Below, one piece after another: positions 3,295 to 55,784 of a DNA stretch of 55,784 nucleotides (positions are counted from its first letter, which is position 1; each line of letters begins with the position of its first letter). A program made the position numbers and the translations under genes. The DNA lies in assembly GCF_004010195.1 (NCBI RefSeq), contig NC_057719.1, forward strand, positions 31,321,304 through 31,377,087, in the 5' to 3' direction. The notes beneath the pieces were generated by a model that did no database searches, was not told where the DNA came from, and worked only from the letters and a program-made list of their open reading frames with translations. Origin of the DNA: Chiloscyllium plagiosum (Eukaryota).

Positions 3295-3425
3295 TAGGAA
3301 GTGAGGACTGCAGATGCTGGAGATCAAAGTTTGGCACTGGAAAAGCACAGCAGGTCAGGTAGCATCCGAGGAGTAGGAGTGTCGACTTGTTGGGCACAAG
3401 CCCTTCATCCGGAATCATCATTCCT
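3295..3425 (-). mobile_element. Penelope-like terminal repeat fragment (family A) with degenerate hammerhead core
   Basis: Reverse complement of the family A repeat at 35560-35694; core decayed to CGGATGA…CAACAA. Confidence 0.7.
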
Positions 3426-4083
3426 GCAGATTTTATACACCTGAAGGATATATTGGGTGTCTACCAATGTCACCACTGAAGTAATTTCTACAAATTCTGT
3501 TGCTTGGAGATGACTTCACATTTGGATACAGTAAATGTAGGAGTGATTTGTTTCTGTTCATTTGGTCGTGTTAGTGTGCTCTTCTGGCTCTGTCTAGCTG
3601 TCTTTATTTTTTTTTTAATTGCTGTTGTCAATGCTGGTAGTTCCTCAGTTATAATTATGCAGTTGGGTGTTGTGCGATTAGCTATATTGTACCCAGATTT
3701 GTAGTAATAAAGTCTGTAATGTACTGATAACGGATGGTTTAAGGTTCCCTATTACACTGTTTATATGAAGTGGCTTTATGGTCAGAAAGCCCCTACATTT
3801 ACTAGTAGGATTAAATTAACACTGTATGCTAGAGCTGGTAAGAAAGAGGGTGAATTGTGCAGACTTGATACAATAATATAACTGTGATATTTTGTGATTG
3901 GTTTCGAATACTTTAATAGCTCACTCCAAATTTGAAGTCATATTTAACTCCATGGATAGTAGTCCAAAGCATCCTGTTCTCCTCTGTATCTCTGAATTTT
4001 AAAATGCTGTTTATTATGTATATTCATCCTTCTACAATGTTTTGCTTGCCCCAAGAATGTCATTAATATTTCTTTAAATTCAG

Positions 4084-4228
4084 GCCCATGTTGAATCCTT
4101 AGAAGGGGTCTCTGCTGTTGACCAAGTGATCCTCTTGGCTGGCACTCCCTTAGATGATGATGCTATCATCGGCCAATGTGGTATCAATGAGCACTGCACA
4201 CTTGAAGTAATTGCTCGATTATTGGGTG
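4084..4228 (+). CDS. FAU: FAU exon (FUBI ubiquitin-like domain, C-terminal part)
   Basis: cag|GCC…GGTG|gt, 145 nt; translates [48 protein letters not shown], matching FUBI. Confidence 0.95.
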
Positions 4229-4721
4229 GTATGTATTATAGTTCTTGAATTTCCCTAATTACTATGTTAAAAATGTAGCGTGTTTACATTTATTGGCAGC
4301 AGTCATTCAGTTGACCTGACTGGTCCAACTTGATGTTACGCTGCAAACAATAGTCTAACAGCATAGCCAACTATTTTTTTTCTCCATGTAATTGTGAAGA
4401 ATTTCCCTTGAAATGCATTTTGTAGAGGTAATATTCACTTCAGTTGATTAGACTGAAGAATCATTTGCCATATAGCCAGACTATTGTGACCAAAATTAAA
4501 CTCAAACTCATTATTCTCTCTACACTGATGTCACTTTCAATTGCCCACCTTCATTTTGTTGCAGATCATGGAACAGTTGAGAAATTTGACTTTGGAATGT
4601 ACAATTAATGTCATTAGACTTTTTTTCTGACCACCTCTAAGATGATGTACTTTTTTGCTTAGAACACAGCTTTGCCACTGCCAACGGTGCAGCTTCTCTA
4701 TCTGAATTAAGCATGGTATTA

Positions 4722-4826
4722 GTTTCTCATCAACCTGGTCAGAGATATTAGACACCCATGGAGCAGGTAGTACATAAACACGTGCTTCCTGGTTGAGAGA
4801 CACCAACCACTGTGCCACAAGAGCTC
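4722..4826 (-). mobile_element. Short tRNA-derived SINE (same family as 9353-9468)
   Basis: Reverse strand GGAGCTCTTGTGGCACAGTGG…CTACCTGCTCC…ATCTCTGA aligns with 9353-9468. Confidence 0.55.
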
Positions 4827-5071
4827 CAAGCATGGAATTTATACTTCGGCAGTGAATCAACTCAAGTGAACAAGCTGTTATTGGTATTGTCCATAATTGC
4901 CAACTTCCCTACAGTAACTGCCAGTAACCAGTTTGTACACCAGCTTTCAGGTAATCCAGGAGCTGTCGCAAGCTTTTGACTTGGGATTTATCATCACTAG
5001 AATATATATTGGCAAAGCTCTGTAGGAAAATGTCTGTGTTGAAATATACTAGCAACATCTCTTCTTTTTAG

Positions 5072-5127
5072 GCAAGGTCCATGGATCCCTTGCTCGAGCT
5101 GGAAAAGTGAAAGGTCAGACTCCCAAG
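5072..5127 (+). CDS. FAU: FAU exon (GG|KVHG cleavage junction, start of RPS30/eS30)
   Basis: ttttag|GC…AAG|gtaag, 56 nt; (G)[18 protein letters not shown]. Confidence 0.97.
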
Positions 5128-5888
5128 GTAAGCTTGACCTGCGACAAAAGTATCTTGAAGGTTTTGCTATAGTTTTGTCTATCCAAATGTGTACCTAAAT
5201 CATATTCAATATCATTGCTAGCAAGGTTGGCAATCAGGTGTTGTGAATTACCTTGCCTCCCCAGCCCTATAGTACATTAATTTTCCTTACCCAAGTCATT
5301 AATATATTGTAGATATGTGGGTCAAGCACTAATCCCCACACCACATCAGTAGAAAGGGGTTGCCAGTCTGAAAATGTGCCCTTATCTCAACCATCTGTCT
5401 TCTATTACTTAGCCAATCCTGGATCCATGCTATTAATCTTATACTAAATTCTTTAAGATTTTACAATTTCTCAGGCATGATTTCCACTTCATGAAGTCGT
5501 GCTGACCCTGATTTTAAGCATTTCTAAATGCTCTAATATGTTTTTATAATATTTGTTTCCCAATAACAAAAGTTAATCTAACTGGACTTTAGTTACCTGT
5601 AGTTTCTCTTTTCCTTTAGTGAAATGTTTTTCAGTCCCCTGGGACTTTCATAATGGTAATAATCTTCCAGGAATCCTCAATGTTTCCACTCTGTGTAGCT
5701 GTTTCCTTCAATATCAGTCTCTAATTTCCCTATCATGTTTTTGCTACATTTTGACTTTGGTTGTATTTTATTTCCTGCTCTTTTACATCTTTACCTCTGC
5801 ATCCTTTTTATTTGAAAAGGGGCAATATCTTCCATCCTACATTTTACACTAATATCTTAAATTTTCACTGATTTATTCTTTTGCATAG

Positions 5889-6014
<126 letters not shown>

Positions 6015-7256: not shown

Positions 7257-7311
7257 TTACTCAATATCCACAAGCTCAACTTCAAATATTAGTTTAGCGT
7301 TTGGTGGAATT
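7257..7311 (-). CDS. FKBP3: FKBP3 exon 7 (last)
   Basis: cag|A ATT CCA CCA…GAG TAA; (K)IPPNAKLIFEVELVDIE*. Confidence 0.95.
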
Positions 7312-8145
7312 CTGATTTTATAGTTAAAGAAAGTTTCATTATGTACCCAAGTTCAAAGTCAGAAACTACCCTTCAGTCCAACTTGTCCATGCCAACCAGA
7401 TATGGCCCATATACCCATCTAAATGCCTTTTAAATGGTGTCATTGTACCAGCCTGCAGACTTCCTCTGGAGCTCATTCCATATGTACACCACCCCCTATG
7501 TGAAAAAGTTGTCCCTTAGGTCCCTTTTAAATGTTTCTCCTCTCACTTTAATCCAATGCAAAAATTTGGACTCTTGCACCCAGGGGAAAAGACCTTGTCT
7601 ATTTACCCTACCCATGCTCATGATTTTATAAGCCTCTTCTAAAGGTCACTCCAACACACTCCAGGGAAAATAACCCCAGTATATTCGGCCTCTTTCCCCA
7701 TAGCTCCAAACTCTCCAACCCTGGCAACATCCTTTAACTCTTTTCTGAATGCTTTCAAGTTTCACAACATCCTTCCTATAGCAGGGAGACCAGAGTTGCA
7801 TGCAGTATTCAGTGGCCTAACCAATGTCTTATATAGTTGCTGCATGACCTCCCAACTCCTATATGCAATGCACCGACCAATAAAGGCAAGCATACCAAAC
7901 ACCTCTGATGAATAAGCTGGTATTGGAAATTTATTAAAGTTGTTCATCTTTTAGTTCCCATAATGTATTCATACCTATGTACTCTCCATAATATATAGTC
8001 TCCAAATGTTATCTTTATAAGGACTAAACAATTTTTCTCAATTTCACTGCTGATTAATTTTGCTAATGCAATTTGGTAAGTTTAGCTGAGCTCTCTACAT
8101 TTTTTACAGAAAAACTATTTTCAACAAGCTATAATAAAAGGATAC
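7312..8145 (-). other. FKBP3: U12-type (minor spliceosome) GT-AG intron, FKBP3 intron 6
   Basis: Donor GTATCCTTTT (8145-8136); branch site TTTCTTTAAC (7332-7323) about 10 nt from the AG; no polypyrimidine tract. Confidence 0.9.
7366..7905 (-). mobile_element. CR1-type LINE 3' fragment
   Basis: Translates to CR1 ORF2 C-terminus (…LYKTLVRPL…) plus 3'UTR like 18200-18560. Confidence 0.8.
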
Positions 8146-8243
8146 TTGGCTTCTGGCTTCCCTTTCTTACCATATCCCCAGTCAGATTCAATCTGTAACC
8201 GGGCCTTTTCCCCTTTACTCATAGTCAAGAGTGCTTCATCCCA
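8146..8243 (-). CDS. FKBP3: FKBP3 exon 6
   Basis: 98 nt; WDEALLTMSKGEKARLQIESDWGYGKKGKPEA(K). Confidence 0.96.
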
Positions 8244-8683
8244 CTATAAAAAAAAAGGATTGAATGATAAATTCAAGTCAGTCAACAAAAAAAATTAGTC
8301 ATTAAAAACAAACTTTCCAAATCTTCAATGGCCTGAATTGGTGAACATTATTATCCAAATAAACCATTAAGGTTTCATAATAGAACTGATCTTTACTGAG
8401 TTGATTGATTTCAAATGCAGTTAGCTTGATTCACGTGGTCTTATTGGCCTTGAAGAAAGGAAATTACAATGAAGGTTCCAGTTCCTCATTGCATTTGATG
8501 TAAAATATGTGTTTGGCTATTATTACAGGATCCACAGATTTGAAATGTCCTTACAAAAAATGAAGAATGGTCACTTTGTGGAGGTCTATCAGTGCTAGTT
8601 GAGAACTCGAGAAGCAAATACCAATTTAAATGCAATGTTAATAAAGATAAATGTACACATTGCTATAAAAACTGCATTCTTAC

Positions 8684-8751
8684 CCCTCGAATAACTTTTC
8701 CAATTCCTACTTTGAAGTTCAGAGGTTTTGTTGCCTTCTTCTTTTTGGAAC
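8684..8751 (-). CDS. FKBP3: FKBP3 exon 5
   Basis: 68 nt; (S)SKKKKATKPLNFKVGIGKVIRG, includes the FKBP25 basic loop. Confidence 0.96.
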
Positions 8752-9352
8752 CTATAGAAAGAAATTCCATTAATCATTTAAGAGTGAATTATCTTAAAGA
8801 TCATTTACTTTTCTTAATTTATTAGGCATTCTCTGCAACATATGAAGCAAGGTCTTTCTTTCCAACTTAATCAAGACAAAAAGACCAGTTATTTATAAAC
8901 AACATTGGAACTACACCTAAGCTCAAATCACTACTTTCAGCAGAAATGTGGAAGAAGCAAGCTTTCAAAACATGTTTATTTAAATTAAAAATCATCAGTA
9001 ATATCCTGGGGGCAATAAACAAAATGAAACTGTGTTTTAGTCATAGAATTACATTTGTTACAGAAGGAACTAATTCAGCCCTCTGCCTTTCTAAGCAGCA
9101 ATCCAGTTAGTCCAACTCTCCAGCTCAATGTCATCCCCGCAAGTTTACTCCCATCAAGTTTTCTTCTGAAATGATTGACCACAAGGCTGGTAGATTCAGA
9201 AACAATGAGCTCCAAATCATAACCATTTGCTGCTTAAAAATGTTCCTCTTCATGTTCTCTTTCCCCAAAATCTTCAACCTGTGTGTTTTCTAGACTTTGC
9301 ATCATCTGCTAATGAGTTTTTTTTGCCCCGGTCTATCTTATAAAAGCTTCAG

Positions 9353-9468
9353 GGTCTCTTGTAGTATGACAGTAGCGCCCCTACCTCTGAGCTAGAAGGC
9401 TGGGTTCAAGCCCTACCTGCTTCAGAGGTCTGTGATAACATCTCTGAATAGAATGTTTAAAAAAAATC
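9353..9468 (+). mobile_element. Short (~116 bp) tRNA-derived SINE with A tail and TSD
   Basis: B box GGTTCAAGCC; A-rich end; flanked by TATAAAAGCT(T/G)CAG at 9339-9352 and 9469-9482. Confidence 0.7.
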
Positions 9469-9965
9469 TATAAAAGCTGCAGTAACCAAACCTTTAAAAA
9501 GGTTCAACACAACTTCCCTCCTCTGTACTCAATGCCTCTATGAAGCCCAAGGCCCCATATGTTTTGCCAACTGCTCACTCTAAAGATCCTTAAGTTGCTG
9601 CCCTCTTAGAAATCAAAATCCAACTAACTGTATCAAATACAATTCAAAACAACAAACTCCAAGGTTAAAACTAAATTCACCAAGTTAACAGAATGTGCCA
9701 TGAATTCTTAGTGTAATTTGTGCCATCAGTGAAAGACTAAATACTTGGTGCAACAATAAAAAAAGAAAATCAAATGCACTGCTCTCAAGTTTCCAATGTA
9801 TTCAGGAAATGTATCCAGAGAAGTTATAGAGACCATTCTAAAATATGTCTAAAATTCTAAAATGCAAAAAGTATTTAACATGTTTAAAAACAGTATCCTA
9901 TATGAATGTATCTCCCAAAAAAATAAGAATGTGCAATGTCAGTCACTACACACATTTTCTTGTTT

Positions 9966-10455
9966 TCACCCAATCTAGTCCCACTTGCCACCACCCAGTC
10001 CATATCCTTCCAAACCCTTCCTATTCATATACCCATCCAGATGCCTTTTAAATGTTGCAATCGTACTAGTCTCCACGACCTCTGGCAGCTCATTCCATAC
10101 ATGCATCACCCTCTGTGTGAAAAAGTTACCCCTTAGGTTTCTTTTATATCTTTCCCCTCTCAACCTAAACCTATGCCCTCTAGTTCTGGGCTCCCCCATC
10201 CCAGGGAACAGACTTTGTCTATTTACCCTATCATACCCCTTATGATTTTATAGACCTCTATAAGGTCACCTCTCAGCCTCTGACGCTCCAGGGAAAACAG
10301 CCCCAGTCTCTTCAATCTGTCCCTATAGCTCATATCCTCCAACATTCTTGTAAATCTTTTCTGAACCCTTTAAAGTTTCATAATCTGGTCGGCATGGACG
10401 GGTTGGATCGAAGGGTCTGTTTTCGTGCTGTATGTCTCTGACTCAATGATTATGA
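9966..10455. mobile_element. CR1 3' end with internal inversion (body on -, terminal ~70 nt on +)
   Basis: 9966-10382 is the reverse complement of CR1 ORF2 end/3'UTR; 10383-10455 is the following CR1 terminus in forward orientation. Confidence 0.75.
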
Positions 10456-10825
10456 CAGCTCTTTAAGAAAAAATGTAAAAGGTTTGTTATTTCTTTAAAG
10501 GTTGAGGAAGAAGTTGAAAGCATTCTGTTTTGTAAAAATAAAAAGGACAGATAATAGAACTACACTTGAAACTACTATAAGAGGTTTCATGTTTACAATA
10601 TTTTCACCATCATAACATCTTATAACCTTTCTCCATTACACAAAATCTGATTAAAAGGTTCTACAGTAAGATCTAAGGTTCAAGTTGAGTTCACAGTCTG
10701 GTTTATCTGCATTTGTAATTAAATAATGTGACAAATTCACTGAATTACAAAGAGAAAAACACAAGATTATATTTTAAATGGAAGGATATAGATAAGTTTG
10801 GAAGAATAGGCAACATCATACCACA

Positions 10826-11009
10826 GTCTAGATTAGAATGGTGCTGGAACAGCACAGCAGGTCAGGCAGCATCTGAGGAGCAGGAAAATCAATGTTGCCC
10901 GAAATGTCGATTTTCCTGCTCCTCTGATGCTGCCTGACCAGCTGTGCTTTTCCGGCACCACTCTAATCTAGACTCTGATTTCCAACATCTGCAGTCCTCA
11001 CTTTTGCCT
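10826..11009 (+). mobile_element. Penelope-like fold-back mini-element (family A) with TSD
   Basis: ~70 bp inverted arms plus ~35 bp tail; flanked by AACATCATA(C/T)CACA at 10812-10825 and 11010-11023. Confidence 0.8.
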
Positions 11010-11089
11010 AACATCATATCACAAACTTGCTCAGAGCCCGAATTATTTATTCTAATTTATAAAACACTGCTACTGTATCAGATTCTTAC

Positions 11090-11225
11090 TAGAAGCAATA
11101 TTTGTGTCAAAAACAGTCCCATCTTCTAACGATCCTGTGTACCAGCAGTGGACAGTGTCACCCTTCTTGGGAAAGTTGGTTTTATCTCCTTTCTGCAAAA
11201 TGGATTTGGTATATTTTGGTGGTTC
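11090..11225 (-). CDS. FKBP3: FKBP3 exon 4 (start of FKBP PPIase domain)
   Basis: 136 nt; EPPKYTKSILQKGDKTNFPKKGDTVHCWYTGSLEDGTVFDTNIAS. Confidence 0.97.
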
Positions 11226-12085
11226 CTAGAAATGATCATAAAAGGTGTTGAAATGGTAGTTAGAACAGAATTTTATTCATTTAATTAACTTACAAATCAT
11301 AATATTTCAAACAAGCAACAGTGAAACAAGATAAACCAACATTATCTAATGCAGAGAGTTTTTGGGAACAGTGGCCCAGACTTTTTTCAAAAAAGTGTTC
11401 TATTAATGTTCAATTCAGCCAGCAATTTGAAACGTGGAAAAAATACTCTTGATTGTGGATTATCGTATTTGTTGGATAATTTGTCCAATTCTATAATCAG
11501 CATCGAGAGAATAACATTGTGCCTTTAACCTGTGATTTTAATGGAATTTAAGCTTAGAAATTAAAAATGCAACTATGCATTTAATAGTGCTATAATCGTC
11601 TGCCAATCAAGTTTGCATACCTGTGTTAACATTTTTTAAAAATGGAGTTCCACTTTCTCAGGTTATAAATTACTGGAGATTTTACAAATGTGGTGTCTTA
11701 AAAATAATCTTCTATTGTCACTTTGTTGTCTCTTAAACCTTTCTTTCTGCTTCTTTTTTGTTTCATAATCTGATTTGACATTTAATTCACCTACTCGAAT
11801 TTACTGTTGTATTTACTCCTCATCCAATTTTCAATTCTTTAAAGTTAAGGAGATTTCTTATTGTTCACTATACTTTTTTTGCATACTCTAATCAACTCAT
11901 ACTTTGTGGACAAAAGTATTTGAAACCAATAAATCTAACAGAGCATACTGTAAAACCACCACACTCCCAACAAAATTTGGACCATTGAATATTGTATCAT
12001 ATTCAAAAGTATATACCTTATATATTTTTAATCCAAGAATGCCGACTCTCTAAAAAGCAAGGATTTTCCAGTTTAGTCTACTAAC

Positions 12086-12199
12086 CTCACTTGCAGTCAC
12101 TTCAGGTTTCTTGGCCTTTGCTTTCTCCTGAGCAGCCCCAAGCTTCACATCTTTAAGCTGCTGAGTCACTTTATCTGCACATTCAGTACCTTTAAACCT
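12086..12199 (-). CDS. FKBP3: FKBP3 exon 3 (linker)
   Basis: 114 nt, phase 0/0; RFKGTECADKVTQQLKDVKLGAAQEKAKAKKPEVTASE. Confidence 0.92.
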
Positions 12200-14081
12200 C
12201 TGCAAGTTAAAGAATCACAGTTTATAAAACAAAAGAAAATACACAATAACCACCAAAACTAAGAACCTGTAATTTTATTTGTCTGTGTAAACATAGTGAA
12301 GTTCATATAAATACTCAATTTGCCATGAATAAACTGGCCTCCCATAGAGGAATGATAATGCTGACAGCACACAAGAACCAGACAACAATATATGGGAATT
12401 TTTTGAAACATTTAACTGTCATTTATTTCATTACCATTTGTTAGATCCTGCAGTGTGTAAAGTTTCTATTACAATGCTATGCCTTTTGGAATAAAACATC
12501 AAACCACAGCCCCAGACATGCTATTAAAGTAATGTAAAAGATACACAATCTTATTCAACAAAGGAAATGAAGGCACCCTTGATGTCTTATCCCTCAACGA
12601 ACAATCAATAAACACATAATAAACAAACCTTACTCTTGTTTATGGAATGCTGTTGTGCATAAGTCAACTGTCTCATTTCTCTATTATAACAGCAATTACA
12701 TTTCAAAAGTACTTGATTGGCAAAAAAGTTTATGAGGATCAGAGATGATAAAAAACTGTTCCATAGATTTTTTTTACATAATTCTCACTGTAACAGAAGC
12801 CTTTCGACATCGTTGACAGCAATCAGAATATACAATAGGAATCTACCAATTTCTTTCCATCTTCCAATTACACAAAATTTATTTCATCCTACTTATATTC
12901 ATGAGGACACAATGATTATACAATGCCTGCATAATTACTATTATATTATTTTCTATCAACTATTTTGACTAATGGTCTAGGTGTAGATGTTGGATTGATG
13001 TGTAAATTTTCAGACTATGCAAAGTTACAAGAGAGTGAGGAATACAAATGAAGCCTTCCACAACAGGAAGTTGAAATGTGCTGGGAGATTGGGCCTGTTA
13101 CTAGCAAATGAAGTTTAACTTGGAGAAATGCAGCTTTATGCATTTGACAAGAAAAGTGTATAAACACATCCTATAGGGAAAAGCATCAAGTAGGTAGGGA
13201 AGGCAATCAAGGAATTCTGATGGATCAATTTCTAACAGTTCATCATCAATTGTTATAAAGTAATGGCTAGCCTAAGTAGCGTACCAAGATACATTTCCAA
13301 GATAATTCACTGAGGCAAAACATACCTATTTCTTCTTTATACAAAACTTTGTTTAAGCTTCAAATAGATTATTCATTTTTGGTCCCTTCATACAGTGGGT
13401 AATATTGAGTTTCTCAAGGGTGGGACAGTAGAGTAATTCCCATTCCAAACCATTTTAGTTACCAAGATAGATTCAAAGAGCAGGTCCACATGTTTTTAAA
13501 GAAGCATAAGATTATAGAGGAGGTGTGTGACTAAAAAATATGAAAAATATGAAAAAATTCTAGTTGCATTCAATGAAGAGAGCAGAAGGGCATGCATGCC
13601 AGGAGGACCACCAGGCAAACCTAAAATTAAATATTAACCTGGTGAACCCAGGTTTTATTTTCCACCTTGATGGTAATAGTGATTTAGGAGCTGGGGTTGT
13701 AAGCATATGGCCATGAAGTTACAGATTGTGTTTGGATACAAACTGCATCTGCCCACGGATTCATGGTTGTCCAGTCTTCAGTTGCTTAATCTGCTTGAAA
13801 TCTATTTCATTCAACCCAAAAGAAGGTATCCTCATTGTGAACAGTGATGGTGGTGATCATATACAAGCCATGTCACCAAAAAGTGCTACAGGAATGAAAA
13901 CGTAACACTATCGTGGCTTGCAAACCATAAATTTGCAATTATAAAATCAAACACAAATTTTGAACTATTAATCTGATGTACTCCAGTAATAAAAATGGTT
14001 CAAATTACAGCAATGTGAACACAAAGTATGTCATTTTCACAAATTCTAGAATTACATCTAATCATATGCATAATTACTCAC

Positions 14082-14183
14082 TTTAGTTTCAAAAAGTTGG
14101 TTGTAGGCAACTACGAGCTGCTCCTTCTTTGTAGTCTTGGCAACATTTTTGATGTTTCCCATTAACTTATGTTCACTAAGAAA
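14082..14183 (-). CDS. FKBP3: FKBP3 exon 2 (BTHB domain)
   Basis: 102 nt; [34 protein letters not shown]. Confidence 0.96.
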
Positions 14184-14683
14184 CTAATTCGAAAAAAAAC
14201 ATGTTAAGTACTAATGTCACCGAAATCCAACTTCCAATACTTCTGATATTCAAAAGTCAACTTTCTAAAATATATGCCTTTTTCACATTTAAAACTGCAT
14301 ATCGTTTTGTATTTGAGACTTTTTTTTTCAATTTGCAATGAAGTCAGGTTTGTGTATTTAAATTAATAAAGATTTGTATTTATGCAGTGAAATATTCAGC
14401 AACTTTACAGCACACCACACCTAACATTTGTGGCGTTAGATCCGAAGGCACGAAGTGGGTGACTGTAATAAAAGTGATCAACATTGATTCTCGCCGCTTT
14501 GCAGTTTTGCAAACGCATCAGGCAAGGAAGGCCAAGTTGCCACATGCCAGACTCCCCGAGCCGCAAGACTGGCTTCTCCAGGCTCGAAGTGGCGCTGCTC
14601 CCGGCACAAACAACTGCCCAAGCCTGGGGGCGGGGAGGTGGGGGGGCAACCAGCAGAAACCCTGCACACACCCCCGCCCTCAC

Positions 14684-14788
14684 CGGCTCCGAAGCGCTCT
14701 GCTGCAGGAACTGGATAATCTCTTTCTTTGCCACATCCTCGCTCTTCAGCTGCTCCTCGGTCCACTGCCTCGCTGGCTCGGCTGCCAT
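14684..14788 (-). CDS. FKBP3: FKBP3 exon 1 (peptidyl-prolyl isomerase FKBP25; 225 aa in total)
   Basis: ATG at 14788; MAAEPARQWTEEQLKSEDVAKKEIIQFLQQSASEP then GTGAG donor. The seven exons sum to 678 nt in frame. Confidence 0.96.
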
Positions 14789-14789
14789 G

Positions 14790-14930
14790 ACCGTCCCAAG
14801 ACTCCCCACTAAACTGCACCGCCACCCAGCGGCCGCCGATAGACCTTATTCACAACCGCCATCTTGGAAAAACGTACCGCAATGCATGGTGGGATGCATC
14901 CGTTTCCAACACACTCCCAGCCGCAACATA
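14790..14930 (-). promoter_or_regulatory. FKBP3: FKBP3 CpG-rich promoter with YY1 and ZNF143/SBS-like motifs
   Basis: CCGCCATCTT at 14856-14865 (YY1); TCCCACCATGCA on - near 14883-14894 (ZNF143-like); local CpG enrichment 14380-14950. Confidence 0.65.
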
Positions 14931-22462: not shown

Positions 22463-22719
22463 GCCATTTGACTCAACACAGAAAGGAGGATTTTTGACAG
22501 CTCTTTACCTATCCTCAAGCAGTCAGTGGTTTGTACTGTGGCATATGACAAGAGAGAAAGGCATGTTGATGTCTAGATGGTACATAGTGCCATTTGACTC
22601 AACACAGAAAGGAGGATTTTTGACAGCTCTTTACCCTATCCTCAAGCAGTCAGTGGTTTGTACTGTGGCATATGACAAGAGAGAAAGGCATGTTGATGTC
22701 TAGATGGTACATAGTGCCA
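22463..22719 (+). repeat. Near-perfect tandem duplication of 126/127 bp
   Basis: 22463-22588 and 22589-22715 differ by one C; GCCA microhomology at the junctions. Confidence 0.95.
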
Positions 22720-33030: not shown

Positions 33031-33043
33031 ATTTTTATTTTCC

Positions 33044-38738: not shown

Positions 38739-38739
38739 T

Positions 38740-40572: not shown

Positions 40573-40829
40573 GGCTTCTATCAATTCTCTTGCTTTCAAG
40601 GCTCCTGTTTTCAATAGAAGAACAGTTAAATATTTCATAGTTTATTTCTTTTTCCATCTTCTTTATAAATTACTTTTTCTGAGGCAAACCCCACTCCCTA
40701 CATTCCCCATGCTGTAATTTACCATGTTGAAATATTGGGAAGTTATCTCTTCCCAGACTTCTGAAAATGAAATTTCAACTCTTCTATTGAGAAGAATTCA
40801 CCAACAAGAAGAATAATTGCATTTATATA

Positions 40830-41037
40830 AAGTTAAAAATCACACAACACCAGGTTATAGTCCAACTGGTTTAATTGGAAGCACACTAGCTTTCGGAGCG
40901 ACGCTCCTTCATCACCTGATGAAGGAGCGTCGCTCCGAAAGCTAGTGTGCTTCCAATTAAACCTGTTGGACTATAACCTGGTGTTTTGTGATTTTTAACT
41001 TTGTACACCCCAGTCCAACACCGGCATCTCCAAATCA
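40830..41037 (+). mobile_element. Penelope-like fold-back mini-element (family B), young, with TSD
   Basis: ~86 bp near-perfect inverted arms with 2-nt centre, 35-bp tail; perfect 12-bp TSD TGCATTTATATA at 40818-40829 and 41038-41049. Confidence 0.88.
40913..40947 (+). ncRNA. Minimal type-I hammerhead ribozyme motif (family B), intact
   Basis: cac-CTGATGA-A-GGAGC-GTC-GCTCC-GAAA-G-CTA-gtg: stem I cac/gtg, 5-bp stem II, palindromic AGCU stem III, CUA triplet. Confidence 0.72.
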
Positions 41038-43077
41038 TGCATTTATATAGAGCACTAATATAGCAAAACCTACTAAGTGTTTCACAGTGTTGTGAACAAG
41101 TATGACATGAGTCAAATAAGGGGAGATAAGGTCAGATGACCAAGTCATTGGTCAAATAAATAAGATTCTAGGGGTGTATGGGTGTTGATTTACTCATTAG
41201 ATCTCCAAATAGCTTAGAGTGCAATATTATGGGTAGGTGTACGTTTTACAAAACTCTTTCACATCAGTTTGGCTGCAGGCAGTACTTACTGGTATGATTT
41301 CAGTGGATGAAAAATTATGGACAGCATGCCCACTGTTATCTAACATATATTAGGTGAATATAACCATCTACTAGTGATGCAGGAACTTTCAACATTTACT
41401 GTAAAGCATTATTAGAAGATTGAGAAATTGGAATATCTGTCCACTACAGAATTCAATGGTCAGCAGTCATTTTGTGATTGAAAAAAACTCTAATTAGAGA
41501 GCTCTGCAAGGATTCAGAACTAATTTGAAATCACACATTAGGTAATCGTACATTCTTAAGATCATGAACATTATCAGTCGTTCCCAAAGATGTTGGCCGC
41601 ATCCATTTTAGAATTGTTTAAAAGTCCATTATCAATTTTTTCAACAATCATTATACATTTAAATCATTCTTTTCTATGTCACAATCATTCTCAGCTTCAG
41701 TCATGTACTGCTCTTCAAATTGTACTGCTATGCTGACACTGTTTTTACTTCAATAGGACATTCTTTTTGAACATGTCGATCTCTTGTGTTGCTGCCCTGC
41801 ACCCCCAACATTAGATTGCTTGTTGTATATATTTCCTACATTCAACTGTTAGAGGCCAACTTTTCAACAACTGTCTTTTGTAAGTCCATCTGATCTTGTT
41901 ATCTTGCTTCACTCGCAATGGACAAATAGTTGGGAAATTGCTGTGATGATAATATTAATAACAAACACCATAAACTCTACTCATGAGCGACTTTGTTCTT
42001 CAGTAACAAATTTACAACACAATTTACTGCACAAAATAAGCAGAGAACGTTGCATATAATGTCTTTTTGTCTGATATATTACTTGATTTTTAATAAGGTT
42101 CTGTGATCCATGAATATATTATGGATAATCTAAATTACATGCTTAAAAAGTCATTTCAGAGAAACTGTCAATCCCCTCCCACCAGTTTGATGGAGGCCGA
42201 TTCATGATAATTAGCTGTTCAACATTTTTATTGACGTTTTCCATGGAGCAACATAAAAATGACACTGATCATGTAATGTCGTAAGTCATTCACACCATAA
42301 TTTACAATGGTATCTATACCATAACAATGACAGACTATTGAAGTACTATTGCTAGTCTTAAGAAATGTTGACCTTTTTAAAAATAAGATGAAGCAACAGT
42401 TGAAGAAGCAAATGATAGAGGCTGTACACAATAGAACAGCAGAAAAAAATTAGTCAAATACGTTACTGGTTACTGTAGTTTTTACAACTCCACAACATTC
42501 CATTTTCTTCAACAGCATTCTTATCCTTAGCTACTAATTAGAGGTAGAGAGAGTAGAGATAAAAAAAGTTCAGGAACAAAGCTTTTCTTTGCAAAAATAG
42601 TGGGTCAGAATTTGCTGAAAAAGTAATAATGCATGAGCTACACACACCATTATTAAAGCTTTAAACAAACAGTTAAGTCTTTACGAATTGCAAATCGACT
42701 AAAGTTGTTGAGCAATTTGTGACGCTTGCCCTGGCTTTGCATAAACAGCACCTCCAATTTTATATCCGTGTGATTTTCCTGAAGTTGCTGCACTCGCATT
42801 CTAATTATCTATTTTAGCATACCACAAATAGTTAACTTTAATAACAGCATAAGTCCCCTGAAATATTGAAGCATTTGTTAAGGACAGGCAATTAAATTTT
42901 TTGAGCCAGAAAGTGAATCATTATAAATATGGAGTTGTGTTCCTTTTTAGTTCTGAATTATTTTGAGATGTTAGAATTGTTGAATTAAATTAACATTTTT
43001 TTCTTATTTGACATTGCTGCCTCCTCTTTCCTTTATGTTTAATGTTTCTTCTCTTCTCCTCAGTATTTACATTGTAA

Positions 43078-44872
43078 AAGGGCAATGTTAGTTGAGAATA
43101 TGGAGTTACAGGCTACAAGATTAGATGGGATTGAGGTTGAGAAAGAGGAGGTTTTAGCAACTTTGGAAGCTCTAAAAATAGATCCGATCCCCTGGCTGGA
43201 TGGGATTTATCCTTGGATTCTCTAGGAAGCCAGGGAGGAGATTGCAGAGCCTTTGTCTTCGATCTTTATGTTATCATTGTCGATAGGAGTAGTGCCAGAA
43301 GACTGGAGGAAAGCAAATGTTGTTCCCTTGTTTAAGAAGGGGAGACGGTACAACCCTGATAATTATAGGCCAGGGAACCTTACTTCACTTATTGGTAAGG
43401 TGTTGGAAAAGGTTATAAGAGATAGGATTTATAATCATCTGGAAAGGAATAATTTGATTAGGGATAGTCAACACGGTTTTGTGAAGGGTAGGTTGTGCCT
43501 CACTAACCTTAATGAATTCTTCAAGAAGGTGCCAAAACAAGTGGATGAAGGTAAAGCAGTTGATGTGGTGTATATGAACTTCAGTAAGGCATTTGATAAG
43601 GTTCCACATGGTAGGCTATTGCACAATACACAGAGTTTTTGGATTGAACATGGTTTAGTGGTTTGGATCAGAAATTGGCTAGCTGAAAGAAGCCAGAGGG
43701 TGGTGATTGATCGGAAATGTTTATCCTGGAGCTCAGTTACCAGGGGTGTGCCACAAGGATCTGCTTTGGGGCTCCTGCTGTTTATCATTTTTATAAATGA
43801 TTTTGTTGTGGGCATGGAATGACAGATTAGTAAGTTTGCGAATGACACTAAGGGAGGCAGGGTTGTGGATAGTGCTGAAGAATGTTGTGGGTTACAGAGG
43901 GACTTAGATAAGATGCAGAGCTGGGCTGAGAAGTGGCAAATGGAGTTTAATGTGGAGAAGTGTGAGGTAATTCACTTCAGAAGAAGTAACAGGAATGCAG
44001 AGTACTGGCTAATGGTAAAATTCTTGGCAGTGTAGATGAACAATGAGATCTCGGTGTCCAGGTGCATAAATTCCTGAAAGTTGCCACCCAGGTTGATAGG
44101 CTTGTTAAGAAGGCATATAGTGTGTTGGTGTTTATTGGTAGGGGGATTGATTTTCAGACCCATTAGGTCATGCTTCAGCTGTACAAGACACTGGTAAGGC
44201 TGCACCTGGAGTATTGCATACAGTTCTGGTCACTACATTGTAGGAAGGATGTGGAAGCTTTGGAAAGGGTTCAGAGGAGATTTACTAGGATATTGTCTGG
44301 TATGGAAAGAAGGTCTTATGAGGAAATGCTGAGGGAACGGAGGTTGTTTTCGTTGGAGAGAAGAAAGTTGAGAAGTGACTTAATCGAGACATATAAGATA
44401 ATCAAAGGGTTATATAGGGTAGGCAATGAAAGCCTTTTTCCTCGGATGGTGAAGGCTAACAGGAGGGAACATAGATTTAGGACCAATATTAGGGGTAGTT
44501 TCTTCACTCAGAGAGTAGTAGGGGCTTGGAACAGCCTGCTTGCAACAGTAGTAGACTCGCTGATGTGATATGCAGGTCAGGTGAATTGGCCATGTTAAAT
44601 TGCCCATAATGTTAGATACATTAGTCAGAGGGAAATGGGTCTGGGTGGGTTACTCTTCGGAGGGTCGGTGTGGACTGGTTGGGCTGAAGGGCCTGTTTCC
44701 ACACTGTAGAGAATCTAATCGAAAAAAAGGGCATTTAAATAGGCATTGGACATACATATGGATAATAATCAAATGGTGTAGGTTAGATGGACATCAGGTT
44801 ATTTTCACAGGTCGGCACAACATTGAGGGCCGAAGGGCCTGTACTGCGCTGTAATGGTCTATGTTTCTATGT
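43078..44872 (+). mobile_element. CR1-type LINE, 5'-truncated RT
   Basis: ORFs 43253-43822 and 44170-44568 carry CR1 RT motifs (VPEDWRKANVVPLFKKG, QHGF, GVPQGS). Confidence 0.92.
44563..44728 (+). mobile_element. HE1-like SINE 3' half nested in the CR1
   Basis: Matches 24675-24848. Confidence 0.8.
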
Positions 44873-44895: not shown

Positions 44896-45030
44896 TGATC
44901 TGAAGAAGAATCATACTGTACTCAAAACATTAATGCTCTCTGCACAGATTCTGGTTCACTTGCTCAGTTTCTCCAGCATTCTCTGGTTTTAGTTTGGATT
45001 TCCAGGACCTGCAATATTTTGCTTTTATTG
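44896..45030 (+). mobile_element. Old Penelope-like terminal repeat with decayed hammerhead (CTGAAGA core)
   Basis: CTGAAGAAG…AAAACATTA followed by …TTTCTCCAGCATT…GATTTCCAG.A.CTGCA; related to 54833-54930. Confidence 0.45.
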
Positions 45031-45765: not shown

Positions 45766-48580
45766 AGAACAAAGAACAAAGAACAGTACAGCATGCGAAT
45801 TGGCCCTTTGGCCTACCAAGGTTGTGCCAACACGTGATGCCTTCTTAACTGCTCCCCCCACCCCCGAAAAGCCTTTTGCCTCTATACTGTCCTTTTCCCT
45901 CTATTCCCTACCTCTTCATATATCTATCAAGGTGCCTCTTAAACATTGCTATTGTATCGACCTCCACTCCCTCTTCTGGCACTTACCACCTCTGTGTAAA
46001 ACCCTGCCTCTCTCATCTCCTTTGAACTTGCCTCTTTTTACCTTAAACGTAGTAATTGATATCTCTCCCCTCGGCAAAAGACTGATTATCCATTCTACCC
46101 AAGCGCCTCATATGTTTGTAAATGTCAATCGGGTCACCCCTTATCCTTTGATATCCAAGTGAAAAAAATCTGATTTTGTCCAATCTCTCCTCCTAGCTAA
46201 TATCCTCCAAACTAGGCAACATCCTTCTAAACTATTTCTGTACCCTCTCCGACTCCGTATTGTTCTGATAGTGTGGCAACCAGAACTGTACACAATATTC
46301 CAAATGTGGCCTAACCAAAGTTCAATAAAGTTGCAATATGACTTGCCAATCTTTATACCCTATGCCTTGACTGGTGAAGGCAAACATACTATATGTTTTC
46401 TTGATCACTTTATGCCTAGATCCCTCTGTATTTTAATGCTACTAAGAGTTCTGCTATTTACTGTACAATTCCGATCTGCATTATACCTTCCAAAATGCAT
46501 TGCCTTGTATTTATCCAGATTAAACTTCATATGCCATTTTTCCTTCCAAACTTTCAGCCTATCCATAACCTGCTGTATCCTGTGGCAATCCTCCTCACTA
46601 TCCGCAGCTCCCATGCACTTTGTGTCATCTGCAAATTTATTAATCAGGCCACCTACATTCTCCATGAAATCATTTATATCTATTACAAAGATCAGATGTC
46701 CCAGCACTGATTCTTGTGGAACACCACTGGCCACAGAATTCCAATCTGAAAAATACCCTTCCACTACTACTCTCTGCCGTCTGTGACTAAGCCAGCTCTA
46801 TATACATCTTACCAGCTCACTGCAGATCCTTTGTGTTTTCATCTTTTATATCAGCCCCTGTTATGAGGGACCTTGTCAAAAGTCTTGTTAAAATTCAATA
46901 GACAATAGACAATAGGTGTAGGAGTAGGCCATTCTGCCCTTCGAGCCTGCACCACCATTCATTATGATCTCCATAACTCTTGATTCCACTATCCTTGAGA
47001 GCTCAATCCAACTCTTTCTTAAACGAATCCAGAGACTGGGCCTCCACTGCCTTCTGGGGCAGAGCATTCTACCTGCCCACCACTCTCTGGGTGAAGAGGT
47101 TTCTCCTCATCTCTGTCCTAAATGGCCTACCCCATATTTTTAAGCTGTGTCCTCTGGTTCAGGATTCACCCATCAGCGGAAACATGTTTCCTGGCTCCCG
47201 AGTGTCCAATCCTTCTCAATCAGATACATCTCAATCAGATCCCCTCTCAGTCTTCTAAACTCAAGGGGATACAAGCCCAGTCACTCCAATCTTTCAACAT
47301 AAGATAGTCCTGCCATTCCAGGAATTGACCTCGTGAACCTACGCTGCACTCCCTCAATAGCCAGAATGTCTTTCCTCAAATTTGGAGACCAGAACTGCAC
47401 ACAATATTCCAGGTGCGGTCTCACCAGGGTCCTGTACAGCTGCAGAAGAACCTCTTTGCTTCTATGCTCAATCCCTCTTGTTATGAAGGCCAGCATGCTA
47501 TTAGCTTGCTTCACTACCTGCTGTACCTGCATGCTTGCCTTCATTGACTGGTGTACAAGAACACCCAGATTTCTTTGTACTGCCCCTTTACCTAACTTGA
47601 CTCTAAATTGGGTAGTAATCTGCCTTCCTGTTCTTGCCACCAAAGTGGATAACCATATATTTATCCAATTAAACTGCATCTGCCATGCATCTGTCCACTC
47701 ACCTAACCTGTCCAGGTCACCCTGTAATCTCCTAACATCCTTGTCACATTTCACCCTGCCACCCAGTTTTGTATCATCAGCAAATTTGCTAATGTTACTA
47801 TTAATACCATCTTCTATATCATTAATATAGAATTCATATAGACAACATCTACCACCTATTGACAATCATCTTTGTCACCTCCTCAAAAAACTTAATCAAG
47901 TTTGTGAGACATGACCTTTCCCTCACAAAGCTGTACTGCCTATTTCTATTAAGTCCATATTTCCTTGAATGTTAATCCTTTCCCTAAGAATCTTCTCCTA
48001 CCACTGACGTAAGGCCCACTGGCCTGTAATTTCCCAGATTATCCCTGTTGCCTTTCTTAAACAAAGTAAAAACGATGGCCATTCTACATTCCTCTGTCAC
48101 CTCTCTTGTGACTAAATAGTGTACAAGGACTTTGCACGAGGCCCCAGAATTTTCCTCATTTGCCTCCCTCAACATTCTGGGACAGGTCCTGGAGACTCTT
48201 CTACTTTAAATCTTTTCAAAACACTGAACACCACCACTTTTTTATGTCAACATACCCTAGAATATCAGCACCCACCATGTCATTCTCCTTTGTGAACACT
48301 GATGCAAAGTATTCATTAAGGACCTCACCCACGTTCTCTGACTCCAGGCATAAATTCCATCCTTTGTACTTGAGTGGATCTACTCTTTCTATAGCTACCC
48401 TCTTGCTCCTTACATACATTAAAATGTCTTGGAATTTTCCTTAATCCTGTTTGCCAAAGACATTTCATGGCCTCTTTTAACACTCCTAATTCCTTGTTTG
48501 AGTTCTTTCCTGCTATCTTTGTACTCTTCAAGAGCTCTGTCTTCAGTTTCGTAAACCTTAAATATGCCTGCTTTTTCTAA
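45766..48580 (-). mobile_element. CR1-type LINE with a younger CR1 nested at ~46900-47830
   Basis: INKFADDTK and ISKFADDTKLGG motifs; host RT sequence resumes after the insert. Confidence 0.88.
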
Positions 48581-49754: not shown

Positions 49755-49888
49755 GCCTTCTTCTTGAAGAAGGGCTCATGCCCGAAATGTCGATTCTCCT
49801 GCTCCTTGGATGCTGCCTGACCTCTGCGCTTTTCCAGCAACACATTTTCAGCTCTGATCTCCAGCATCTGCAGTCCTCACTTTCCTCT
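49755..49888 (+). mobile_element. Penelope-like terminal repeat (family A) with hammerhead remnant
   Basis: TTGAAGA-A-GGGC-TCAT-GCCC-GAAA-T-GTC followed by the family A tail. Confidence 0.75.
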
Positions 49889-51633: not shown

Positions 51634-53746
51634 ATTCCCTCCTTATATAAAATGAACCATCGATATGCAAAGATGGCTTCATTTTAAAAACCTTTAATCT
51701 TTCACTATTTAGTACACTACAATACATATACATTACATTGACTGTAAGCATGCAAATATTTCATACTATTTCAATCTATTTCTTCCATCACCAAACACCT
51801 TCATCGTCTTTCATCAAAGTCATGACAACATGTTGACAATTACGTTTCCTCATCCTGCCACGTGTATAATTTTCAAATTAAATGGCTGTAATAATAAATT
51901 TCATTTTAACAGTCTGATATTTTTATCTTTAATATTTTTCCAAAACATTGAGGTTATGATCAGTATATAAAATTATCTCAGACATTTTATGGGCAATGTA
52001 AATATTGAAATGTCACAACACCAACACCAAACTCTGGATTTTCTTCTCAATTGCAGATGTATTTTTGATGTACATTCAACTTTCTGGCAAAATAGTCAAT
52101 AAGCTTTTCTATCTTCACGTCATCCTCTTCCAAGAGTACAGCACCAACACCCCACATCCTTTACATCAGTAGGCACCTTAAAAGGCTTTGCATAATTAGA
52201 TGTGGCTAACACTGGGGCAGTGGTTAACACAGCTTTCAGGCTGCCAAATGCCTTCTGACATTTCTTCCATTGAAATTTTCTGCACTTCTTCAACATGTCT
52301 GTTAGTGATGCAATCACATTGCTAAACTTTGGTACAAATTGCCAATTTAAAACTACTCTGTCCTCAGAATCAGAGCACTTCCCTCTTTGTCAATGGTATG
52401 GGAAACTCCCAAAAAACATTTGTTTTCACATCCTGTGGGGTCATCTGCCCATGTTTGATCATTATGGCTTTGGAACATGATTTGGGAACTCAATGTCAGC
52501 CAGGTTTATCACCAAGCCTGCCTCCTAAAGTTGATAGAACATTTCCGATACTTGCTTCAGATGTTCCTCCCTTGTGTGACTAAAAATCACCAGATTGTCA
52601 ATGTAAATCACACAATTGATATATACAAATGACTTTATTGGTTAGTCATTGAAATGTAGCTGATGCATTTTCAGCATAACTTTAAACTGGTAAAGTTCAT
52701 TTGGTGTCACAAAAACTGAAATTTCCATCATTCTTTTGGATGAAGGTACCTCCCAGTTTCCTTTGAGTAATCTCAGCTTCAAAATATATGTTCCCTGTCC
52801 ACTTTCTCAGTACATTCTTCCAGTTGTGGTATGGATATGAATCAGGTTTCATAACTGTATTGACATTGCGATAGTCAATAATTTGTTGTATACCATGTGG
52901 TTTTGGCACCATCACTCGGGGTGAGCTCTATTTGCTACAACTCACTTTGATTATATTGTCTTTGAGGTTTATTGTTTTCCTTTCCTTTTATTACCTCCTT
53001 TCCACAGTTTTTGTTTTAGTTTTTGCTTAAATTTACCTTCTAAAGAGAGGTCTTTGGTGGGAAGGTGGCTTCAATGGGGTCCAAGGTGGTGTGTCTTCAG
53101 AGGCAGTGTGGCTAAAGAGTTGGCTAAAGAGTTGTGAAGCTTGAAGTGGAACTCTGTGGCAGTAGTGTGGTGTGGACTGGTGAATCCTCATGCGGAATTC
53201 TGGCTATAGAGTGGAGTGGGCTGAAGTCTGAAGAAGGAAAAGTTGGACTGTCATTAAGTTAACTTTCTTTATTTTTTATTTTATTTTAAGTTAATGAGAA
53301 TGATGCAGATTCATGGCAATGGTATAAACTTTTCACGATATTTTATATTGAATATATGTGATAATAAAAGATTCAATTAAATTCAATACCCACATGTCAT
53401 GTGGGTACTTCATTTCATTTGCTTAGCCACTTTCTCAAATGAAATGAAAACAACTTCTAGGTTCCCCATGTCAAACTTTAGTAATGCTTGGACATATTTA
53501 AACAGATTCCCACTAGTTGTTTGGCTACAATAAGTTTGCTCTTCATCACTGGCCCCATCACTATTTCTACCTTTGCCATTTTAAGTCCACTTCCCTTTCT
53601 CAGTGCCAACTTCAGAAGTTCAAAAACTCTCACTTTTTCCATTTCTTTTGCTAGGCCTATCCTTTATTTTTCTTTTTGTTCTGCTGGGGCTATCTTTTCT
53701 TTTTCCTTCCCCTCTCCCCACACCCCTCCCCACACCGGCCAAAGGT

Positions 53747-54344
53747 TATTATGGACCAGACCAAATTCCTTTCAACTTACTAATTTTTATCTTGTTTAAA
53801 GACAAGTGTAAGGTATTGTGTTCCAGATATAATTCAACTGGTTACACTACTCAACTTTAAGTAAAACACACTTTCTTACCCTATAGTTAAAATGAAAGAT
53901 GAATTGGTGTAACCTTAACTTTATTGGAAAACCTAACAGAATAATAGATTATTTACCTAGTAGACAACAAATGTTCCAATAATGTACCATCCCATAAACA
54001 TACCCTTGGCAAAGGCAAAGTCAGTAAAACAGATGGTTTCACATGCAGTTCTGACAGTAGAGAAAAAAACAAAGTTTTTGCTGTGGCAGAGAGATATGTA
54101 ACAGTTTCAACAGCCAACTTCAAAACCACAACAACTGCTGAAAGCTAAACTAAAGCCTTGGTTCTGTGAGAGCCTGACTCTACCTATTCATGCTGCTTCT
54201 TTTATTACTTAAAAAAAAAACCAAGGCTTCACAAGCTGATTACTTTATTGGCTTAGAAGAGACAGCTTGGCATCTATAGCTCAAAACCTTTTTTCAAAAA
54301 GAACTATGGAAAAGTACACCTCTTAAAGCCATAGTTTCATCACA
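53747..54344 (-). repeat. 5' LTR of the Gypsy remnant
   Basis: Starts with TG on the minus strand (54344); aligns with 51199-51633. Confidence 0.8.
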
Positions 54345-54832
54345 CGTTGTACCTTTGGCACTGATGATGAAATGATCTGAGTATTAACAAACATTGAGAG
54401 GAAATAGATGCATTTGCTAACTTTGATCCTGAGAATTTTGAGGGACACTGAGGATGTAGAAAATGACCAGTAAATAATTATAGCAAACATTGTCAATCTA
54501 ATTTAATTAAATTTGAGTTAAGTAGAGCAAGTGAAAGTAAATTCATTGTGAAAATAAGTTAGAAAATGCTTTCAATTATAACATTTAGATTTGTTACAAT
54601 TGTTTCTTAATTTCTTTCTCACAATTGATTAAGTGAACTGTTGAATGAAATTTTTTGGATAGAGGAAATGGTTTGAATAAATGATTTCACACCAGAAGGA
54701 ATATGAATTAAGTGGAATGGTAAAACAGTCCCAAATGTTATAATGAGACAAGTTGTGACTGTCAGCTATTCCCAACTGGCAACAGTTAACATTGGTTGTA
54801 ACCAATCAACTATTACTTTGGAAACAAACCAG

Positions 54833-54930
54833 TTCTGAAGAAGAGTCATACCAGCGTCGAAATGTTAACTCTTTTTTCCTCTCCTCAAAAATAGCCAGAC
54901 CTGTCAAATTTCTTCAGCACTCTGTGTTTG
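54833..54930 (+). mobile_element. Old Penelope-like terminal repeat with decayed hammerhead
   Basis: CTGAAGAAGAGTCATACCAGCGTCGAAATGTTAAC. Confidence 0.45.
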
Positions 54931-55407
54931 TAATCATTGGTTGACTTTCTCTGTCCTAAAAAGTTGTCCTTTTTTATTATCCCATTTCCAATTTTAACAG
55001 GGAATCAGTGAACCCACCCTAATGAATTGATGCATTGGTTATCAGCATGATGGGTGAAATTCTGTAAAACAAGAGAAGAAACTAAAAGATACACTGACCA
55101 TAGGTCAAAATTTCAAATCTTTGTTTGGAAAGCAAAAAAATATCAAATGTTACACAAATCATAAAAATAAACACTTCCTTCACAAAACTTACATATAACC
55201 CAGTTAATCTCCAGGAAATACTTCTCATTAAGATAGTGTGTTTTATTGGAGATGTAGGTTTTCAACTCCTCTAACTCTTGTCACAATCTCCCCAATTGAT
55301 GCTGGGAGCAAGGAAGATGAATGAAGCATACTGGTGTATGAAGAGAGGAAAAAAACAAGGTTCCCCTGAATTGAATGACAGAACATTCTCAATGTGTAAG
55401 CTTCTTT

Positions 55408-55784
55408 TGTTGAAAATCATACAACACCAGGTTATAGTCCAAAGGTTTAATTGGAAGCATACTAGCTTTCGGAGTGTCACTCATTCATCAGGTGATAGTG
55501 GAGAGCTCAATCCTAACACACAGAATTTATAGCAAACATTTACAGTGTGATGTAACTGAAATTATACATTGAAAAATCGATTGTCTGTTAAGTCTTTCAT
55601 CTGTTTGAATGCCATGATTGTTTCACTTCTTTCATGTGTAAATCACAAAACCTTTTTTAAAAAGTTGCATTCTCAGGTTAGCTGTTAACAATGGTGATAG
55701 CTAGACAATATGTTGAAGGTGTTAGCCCCCTGTGTTCTCTGTCTATGCCATGATGTTTAGATTGATTCTAATCTAAAAAGTGAG
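55408..55784 (-). mobile_element. Penelope-like element (family B), longer copy running off the right edge
   Basis: 55408-55492 matches the 40830-40914 arm; minus-strand core cac-CTGATGA-A-TGAGT-GAC-ACTCC-GAAA-G-CTA. Confidence 0.78.

Follow-up and report, generated by a model that had tools for sequence, protein, structure and literature searches.

Penelope-like elements (PLEs) of metazoans are known to carry minimal type-I hammerhead ribozymes in their pseudo-long terminal repeats (pLTRs) (PMC4209133), and vertebrates carry Neptune and Poseidon elements (bioRxiv 2026.07.22.740005). The ribozymes cleave poorly, even as dimers (PMC4209133; PMC6765202), eight of nine dimers from Xenopus failed to cleave in vitro (bioRxiv 2026.07.22.740005), and PLE hammerhead cleavage is protein-assisted (PMC11167929). 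Reverse transcription has been described as starting at two internal sites on an uncut RNA template, with both strands extended (PMC11167929), and the pLTR contains an internal promoter with an initiator (PMC2377424, PMC3846280). We analysed 55,784 nt of the Chiloscyllium plagiosum genome (NC_057719.1, positions 31,321,304 to 31,377,087; hereafter the window), in which a search with profiles built from genome copies detected 14 repeat arms from 10 insertions. We conclude with high confidence that these repeats are dead, mostly 5'-truncated PLE ends (pLTRs) from at least two protein-coding families with the known minimal hammerhead, and that the intronic copies are unlikely to cut pre-mRNA. They are very abundant elements of a known kind, and the finding is confirmed and mostly known.

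Parent elements and the hammerhead motif

The original prediction derived the repeats from PLEs, and this origin was borne out by reverse transcriptase (RT) and GIY-YIG endonuclease frames linked to the motif. The Pfam scan covered 448 of 550 open stretches, the remainder, mainly in recognised repeats, being omitted. In family A, RT, a C-X4-CxxC linker and GIY-YIG lie in one frame, followed by the family A arm. The RT domain PF00078 scored above its cut-off upstream of family A arms, and the nearby GIY-YIG domain PF01541 reached 23.9 bits in locus L042 and 21.2-21.5 bits, just below the 22.6 cut-off, in four long copies. Locus L225 contains a 749-aa frame (RVT_1 35.4 bits, GIY-YIG 21.5 bits) with a family A arm 175 nt downstream. 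Family B shows a parallel RT frame (RVT_1 32.2 bits), the same C-X4-CxxC linker between RT and endonuclease, and a YIGE-type motif, followed by the hammerhead motif; its endonuclease gave no Pfam match and was recognised by alignment to family A. The A and B proteins share 32% identity, yet the two families have the same hammerhead core. The family B locus L057 is a partial tandem, ordered as pLTR with tail, ATG, open reading frame (ORF) and tailless pLTR, and the tail leads into the ATG in 30 of 30 loci, which were chosen by that junction. As a CX2-5CxxC linker marks Neptune or Nematis elements (PMC8557442), families A and B would be, from their sequences, the ends of two Neptune-type endonuclease-positive (EN+) PLEs. 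A PDB search found no relative. At another locus (L229:4929-5786), a tailed family A arm continues in frame into the RT region of a different PLE-like protein.

The motif consists of a CUGANGA, GAAA and NUH core with a stem II, an extra base before position 10.1 and a G10.1-C11.1 pair. Positions 15.2-16.2 are palindromic, permitting a dimer stem III, and most commonly read ACGU in families A and D and AGCU in family B. Its proposed identity as the minimal type-I hammerhead of PLEs is therefore supported, and is itself published knowledge (PMC4209133). The core and G10.1-C11.1 are kept in four families despite different stems. The flanks, said to be unrelated between families, are indeed so for A and B, but family C shares its downstream flank with family A. 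Family D has a stem II of 6-7 bp with U as the extra base and accounts for 28 arms in 0.951 Mb of randomly sampled genome (e.g. L152, L094, L144, L116), whereas the profile search found none of its arms in the window. The suggested stem II covariation (GGGC/GCCC versus GAGC/GCTC) holds as a genome-wide subfamily, GAGC being paired with GCTC in 61 of the 100 first-listed of 355 matches and GGGC with GCTY in 3 of 97 among the matches listed (both counted by eye), but fails for its example at 28.6 kb, where the arms read GAGC/GTTT and GACC/GCTC; GAGC/GCTC occurs in no window copy. An Rfam scan matched no hammerhead model at E values up to 10, and the palindromes gave only chance microRNA matches.

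The full set of 11 core bases survives in 56 of 95 copies of family A, 22 of 50 of family B and 8 of 43 of family C, and the commonest core losses within families were CpG transitions. Such a pattern of core survival is as expected of neutral decay with age, and the motif is likely kept by selection on active (master) elements, not on inserted copies.

The exact patterns used for counting in the 3.56-Gb source assembly demand the core, a pairable stem II and the palindrome, with stem I not required. They matched 110,549 (A) and 27,833 (B) motifs genome-wide and none in reversed controls, giving at least 138,382 exact intact-looking motifs, or 39 per Mb, in agreement with the very high density originally claimed. 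The random sample consisted of 100 10-kb stretches (950,954 readable bases). A descriptor scan for core and stem II, as had been suggested, yielded 4 matches in the window, where 30 shuffles averaged 0.17, and 77 in the sample, where 3 shuffles gave 1-2; since these counts exceed the shuffles, a chance origin is excluded. Extrapolation from chromosome-scale contigs gives ~2.8 x 10^5 descriptor matches genome-wide and, from 353 arms detected by profiles in 0.951 Mb, ~1.3 million arms. The window itself is ordinary, with 251 arms per Mb versus 371 per Mb in the sample. The count obtained here exceeds the 126,247 type-I hammerheads of the axolotl (PMC7229834), though the axolotl genome is much larger and the descriptors differ. 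No shark hammerhead count was found in print, although subscription papers, Repbase/Dfam entries and bioRxiv supplements, which were out of view, may describe these families.

Insertion anatomy and proposed routes of integration

In family A, 90 of 170 arms belong to head-to-head pairs, as do 60 of 79 in family B; tail-to-tail controls gave 11 and 6, respectively. Just one of the two arms carries a tail in 37 of 45 A pairs and 26 of 30 B pairs (p 8e-6 and 2e-5, respectively; 63 of 75 overall). Target-site duplications (TSDs) with a score of at least 9 flank 32 of the 48 pairs in family A and 20 of the 31 in family B (52 of 79, window pairs included) and none of the swapped-flank controls, so that each pair represents one event. 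The TSDs are mostly 12-15 bp long, minimal two-arm insertions dominate, and the junctions differ among nearly all pairs. Family A insertions are also found nested in the pLTR or tail of family B (L134, L069, L107, L220).

The 5' ends of family A were scored in 127 of 170 arms (33 lacked an anchor and 10 lay at an edge or N). Among these, 47 begin at -10..-1 relative to C3, including 32 at -5..-3, and no more than 15 extend beyond -20, a pile-up before the core of which no report was found in the literature searched. Solo copies share this edge, starting at about -2 to -9, and family B (66 of 79 arms scored) has a broader spread. Of 30 full-length family B copies inspected by eye, 4 end between -14 and +2, 15 end within the pLTR, 10 continue further upstream and 1 is unreadable; that only 4 end at the motif edge tells against a simple single start site.

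The predicted cut site showed no genomic spike when arms truncated around it were counted by hand in the first 100 of 8,710 (~80 scorable): 6 clear and 5 ambiguous starts fell at the cut, compared with 12-15 at two sites immediately before it and 6, 6, 7 and 11 at four sites after it. A genomic cleavage footprint as a general feature was rejected. Arms starting at the cut gave 472 pattern matches, and the 30 such loci that were read comprised 11 stem I fold-back joints and 4 one-base insertions, with microhomology in most others. Among the scored arms, the 11 found at the cut position belonged mostly to one tandem array. This array (L075:133-645) comprises ~10 family A 47-nt units, each beginning at the exact predicted cut and with junctions of varying length, and resembles the product of successive template jumps from the end of a cleaved RNA. 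In a family A pair at L070:4271-4446, both arms start from the predicted cut site and are separated by an 8-nt insert. In one junction class (11 of 30 loci, L163-L192), the motif 5' edge of one arm is fused, via stem I self-complementarity, to the first nucleotide past the cut in the partner arm.

To account for this anatomy, we propose that the RT-endonuclease would nick both strands 12-15 bp apart, and that both nicked strands would then be primed at different sites, ~30-38 nt apart, inside an uncut RNA. The two complementary DNAs (cDNAs), one tailed and one tailless, would meet head to head, each usually ending at or near the hammerhead 5' edge, and the inserted copies would then decay, chiefly by CpG loss. 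The ribozyme would likely serve to process the RNA of its own element slowly, aided by dimer formation or by protein.

RNA evidence came from one poly(A) single-cell run (X19), labelled with the same species as the best-matching DNA dataset, with 3,286 reads mapped onto one family B copy; a second run (X20) yielded no reads. In this sample, 379 and 459 reads become A-runs at +57 and +60 from C3, in DNA that is not A-rich, 12-15 nt past an ATTAAA/AATAAA hexamer and ~30 nt after the cut site of the uncut ribozyme; the reads may derive from host transcripts using such copies as ends. No description of a pLTR poly(A) site was found in the literature searched. A family B end with a used poly(A) site lies at L128:4323-4326, and thousands of copies could supply 3' ends of host transcripts.

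A bolder scheme, which we consider possible but rather doubtful, draws on an analogy. Retroviral strong-stop DNA arises by cDNA run-off at the RNA start site, and PLE RNA might likewise be built like a retroviral R-U5 end. Transcription would start at the hammerhead 5' edge, with an initiator-like TCATT/ACATT at -4 in family A, and the poly(A) site would lie ~30 nt past the cut site, with both RT start sites beyond it. As both RT start sites would lie downstream of the poly(A) site, priming of a unit-length RNA would, speculatively, take place in its 5' copy, from which target-primed cDNA would extend until it ran off the end of the RNA. In that case, 'strong-stop' cDNAs that had integrated might make up most of the ~1 million short arms, and a longer copy would require strand transfer through the hammerhead repeat. 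If true, strand transfer would account for the pLTR, and the motif would have a function other than cleavage. This model can be tested directly on the strength of three features, namely the one-tail rule, the pile-up of 5' ends and the position of the poly(A) site, and ~1 million independent insertion ends form a natural record of the poorly understood integration of PLEs. No description of a 'strong-stop' model for Penelope was found in the literature searched. The scheme is weakened in that no more than 4 of 30 full-length B copies stop at the edge, and an endonuclease acting at ATT could also give the family A peak.

The latter explanation, which concerns the 5'-end pile-up only, deserves serious consideration without being the favoured one. 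The edge would reflect the endonuclease cutting its own new DNA at ATT before the core, or microhomology joining, rather than the RNA 5' end. Consistent with this, the PLE endonuclease of Anolis favours 5'-ATT-3' within the junction of its own pLTR (PMC11167929), family A has ATTC at -4, family B, without ATT there, has the broader spread, and the stem I joints in 11 of 30 loci of the junction class described above show joining by self-complementarity. However, solo copies with no partner also begin at about -2 to -9, and family B still loses about half of the arms passing C3 within 12 nt.

It is quite improbable that the short copies form an independent non-autonomous family, as a non-LTR retrozyme or an element like a SINE or a miniature inverted-repeat transposable element (MITE) that amplifies itself as a unit. 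Most arms are indeed 100-130 nt long without coding sequence, and the family A 5' ends are sharply clustered. The copies, however, form no tandem arrays, their junctions differ in nearly all pairs, and the same ends grade into GIY-YIG and RT coding sequence, so that this reading is largely refuted.

Several observations weigh against our interpretation of the repeats as decayed PLE ends copied from uncut RNA. The clade assignment was made from the linker motif, which Nematis has too, and the sole link of family C to PLEs is its DNA likeness to family A. Non-CpG core columns are kept better than flanks across family A copies (0.975 versus 0.896-0.927), which we attribute to subfamily structure, weak selection on the copies being possible as well. 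The partner arm is among the top 5% look-alikes in only 13 of 45 A pairs and in 0 of 28 B pairs, which bears on a one- versus two-template origin. Finally, a few loci start exactly at the predicted cut (both arms of L070, the L075 array and L146), hinting at some cleaved template.

Copies in the window and their surroundings

The repeat-derived features of the window are as follows.

3299-3415, minus strand: family A solo tailed arm, hammerhead core broken (3411), antisense to FAU
10820-11004: family A head-to-head pair in an FKBP3 intron, with truncation of each arm within the hammerhead; plus arm tailed, minus arm tailless; 14-bp TSD with one mismatch
28542-28782: family A head-to-head pair in a serpin intron, inserted into a LINE-like (long interspersed nuclear element) fragment; plus arm tailed; C3 at 28647 (minus) with G12 lost, C3 at 28661 (plus) with core intact but ACAU
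34661-35690: family A head-to-head insertion of ~1 kb in a serpin intron; 14-bp TSD; minus arm tailless, plus arm tailed
34723-34758, minus strand: intact minimal hammerhead, C3 at 34754, stem II GGGU/GCCC, ACGU, GUC; sense to the serpin pre-mRNA
34958-35214, minus strand: GIY-YIG C-terminus remnant of the family A protein, with frameshift and stop (tblastn E 3e-11, 58% over 50 aa)
35232-35378, plus strand: GIY-YIG C-terminus remnant of the other arm (tblastn E 2e-10)
35564-35599, plus strand: minimal hammerhead with core intact (35568), palindrome now ACAU
36599-36644, plus strand: family A tail-only insertion with 8-bp flanking repeat (profile match 36601-36640)
40825-41040: family B near-perfect head-to-head pair, arms 97% identical, 12-bp TSD; plus arm tailed, minus arm tailless and without C3 (profile match 40825-41037)
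40913-40947, plus strand: intact family B minimal hammerhead, C3 at 40916, GGAGC/GCUCC, AGCU, CUA; antisense to the serpin gene
40956-40961, plus strand: ATTAAA hexamer of the family B end; on another family B copy, mapped reads become polyadenylated 12-15 nt past it
44897-45018, plus strand: arm of family C (old, A-related), G12 lost (44900)
49761-49884, plus strand: family A solo tailed arm, C3 lost (49764), palindrome now AUGU
54830-54934, plus strand: family C arm, stem II mismatched (54835)
55409-55784, minus strand: family B 3' end, tailless; arm at 55409-55495, then upstream untranslated region to the window edge; stem II broken at its first pair (55491); ~95% identical to other genome copies

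A motif copy was present at every position originally listed. The count of about ten dispersed copies stands as far as their presence is concerned, although it overlooked that most copies are paired head to head within single insertions. Less was left of the conserved catalytic core and palindrome: four of the 14 arms have the full core with stem II, extra base and G10.1-C11.1, and only two, 34754(-) and 40916(+), also keep the palindrome, the other 12 being damaged or truncated. Core changes occur at 3411, 28647, 44900 and 49764, stem II is broken at 55491 and 54835, and the 10.9 kb arms end inside the motif; the decay of the window copies is of CpG type.

Three host genes surround these copies.

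4084-5990, plus strand: FAU exons (ubiquitin-like, S30; PF00240, motifs)
7260-14790, minus strand: FKBP3-like gene (PF18410, PF00254), exons at 11073-11225 and ~8750
23423-40641, minus strand: serpin gene with four coding exons (PF00079)

The first coding exon of FAU was looked for and not located, so the copy at 3.3 kb is placed in a FAU intron by inference. The family B pair at 40825-41040 likely sits in an intron of the serpin 5' untranslated region. The only intact sense intronic motif of the window, 34754(-) in a serpin intron, is predicted to pair with the opposite arm with a probability of 1.0 in a 1,071-nt fold, and the other three window pairs have predicted arm-pairing probabilities of 0.64-0.83. 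As the intronic copies are antisense, broken or, by prediction, duplexed with a partner, they would be unlikely to cut pre-mRNA. In the X19 run, the reads over the family B copy are mostly sense and show an even depth on either side of the predicted cut (1259, then 1300), where a cleaved 30-nt 3' product would be invisible; nor was any accumulation of molecule starts reported for family B in this run. Accordingly, the claim of self-cleaving motifs within FAU, FKBP3 and serpin introns was not upheld, and motif counts in introns overstate active ribozymes.

That intronic copies are active ribozymes shaping host pre-mRNA processing is very unlikely: the abundance of exact intact motifs (at least 138,382), the intact sense copy 34754(-) and a family B double-hammerhead fold of -16.3 kcal/mol, about equal to that of two monomers with stems I and II, speak for it, whereas the damage to 12 of 14 window arms, the predicted full duplexing of the intact sense copy, the family A double-hammerhead fold of -3.7 versus -22.0 for the best dimer fold, the level family B read depth (with the 30-nt product invisible) and the Xenopus dimers left uncleaved in vitro speak against it.

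Elsewhere in the window, we noted a 26-bp minisatellite of 34 copies (19963-20848), a 127-bp tandem duplication with 98% identity (22459-22719), and LINE-type RT fragments (PF00078) at 17192-17536, 43226-43819 and 46408-46797, which we take to belong among many CR1-like pieces. A CpG-rich stretch at ~200-1000 (minus strand) reads, by eye, like what is presumably a LINE-1 ORF1 fragment. On the minus strand, there are also a PF17919 fragment (RT-RNaseH of LTR-type elements) just below the cut-off at 52123-52389, and a tRNA-like match at 33304-33391 (27.6 bits, below the Rfam cut-off), possibly the head of a short interspersed nuclear element (SINE).

Comparison with known systems

The non-LTR retrozymes of the axolotl (PMC7229834) and others (bioRxiv 10.64898/2026.07.22.740005) resemble the present repeats in their very-high-copy type-I hammerheads, and a PLE ancestry has been proposed for them. 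They are, however, non-coding tandem arrays with canonical tertiary contacts, whereas the copies here are dispersed, inverted and continuous with PLE coding sequence; no retrozyme-type head-to-tail non-coding tandem array with hammerhead units was found in the window.

The Anolis Poseidon element PAc (Frangieh et al. 2024, PMC11167929) has the same two tail-defining 3' ends, uses an uncut RNA template and extends both strands. It belongs to another clade, and its ORF starts in stem II, whereas that of family B starts at the tail end; the available part of that report describes neither a 5'-end pile-up nor a poly(A) site.

The minimal hammerheads of metazoan PLE pLTRs (Cervera & De la Pena 2014, PMC4209133) are alike in the core, the extra base 9/10.1, the G10.1-C11.1 pair and the palindromic 15.2-16.2, and also in occurring as many consensus families per genome, mostly as single truncated copies or opposite-strand pairs. 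The motif described here has a short stem II of 4-5 bp and a weak stem I of 3 bp. The published counts of ~4,000 in coelacanth and 9,000 in Xenopus compare with at least 138,382 here, a ratio that is only rough because the descriptors differ, stem I not being required in ours.

In architecture, the repeats match Neptune-type EN+ PLEs (Craig et al. 2021, PMC8557442; Arkhipova et al. 2013, PMC3846280), which have the same RT, CX2-5CxxC linker and C-terminal GIY-YIG in one ORF, the same partial tandems, and the same inverted 5'-truncated copy with a 30-40 bp tail at one end and a TSD. The layout of head-to-head pair, single tail and TSD is already published in these two reports, and the present repeats add to it a one-tailed state in 63 of 75 counted pairs, TSDs of mostly 12-15 bp and the dominance of two-arm insertions.

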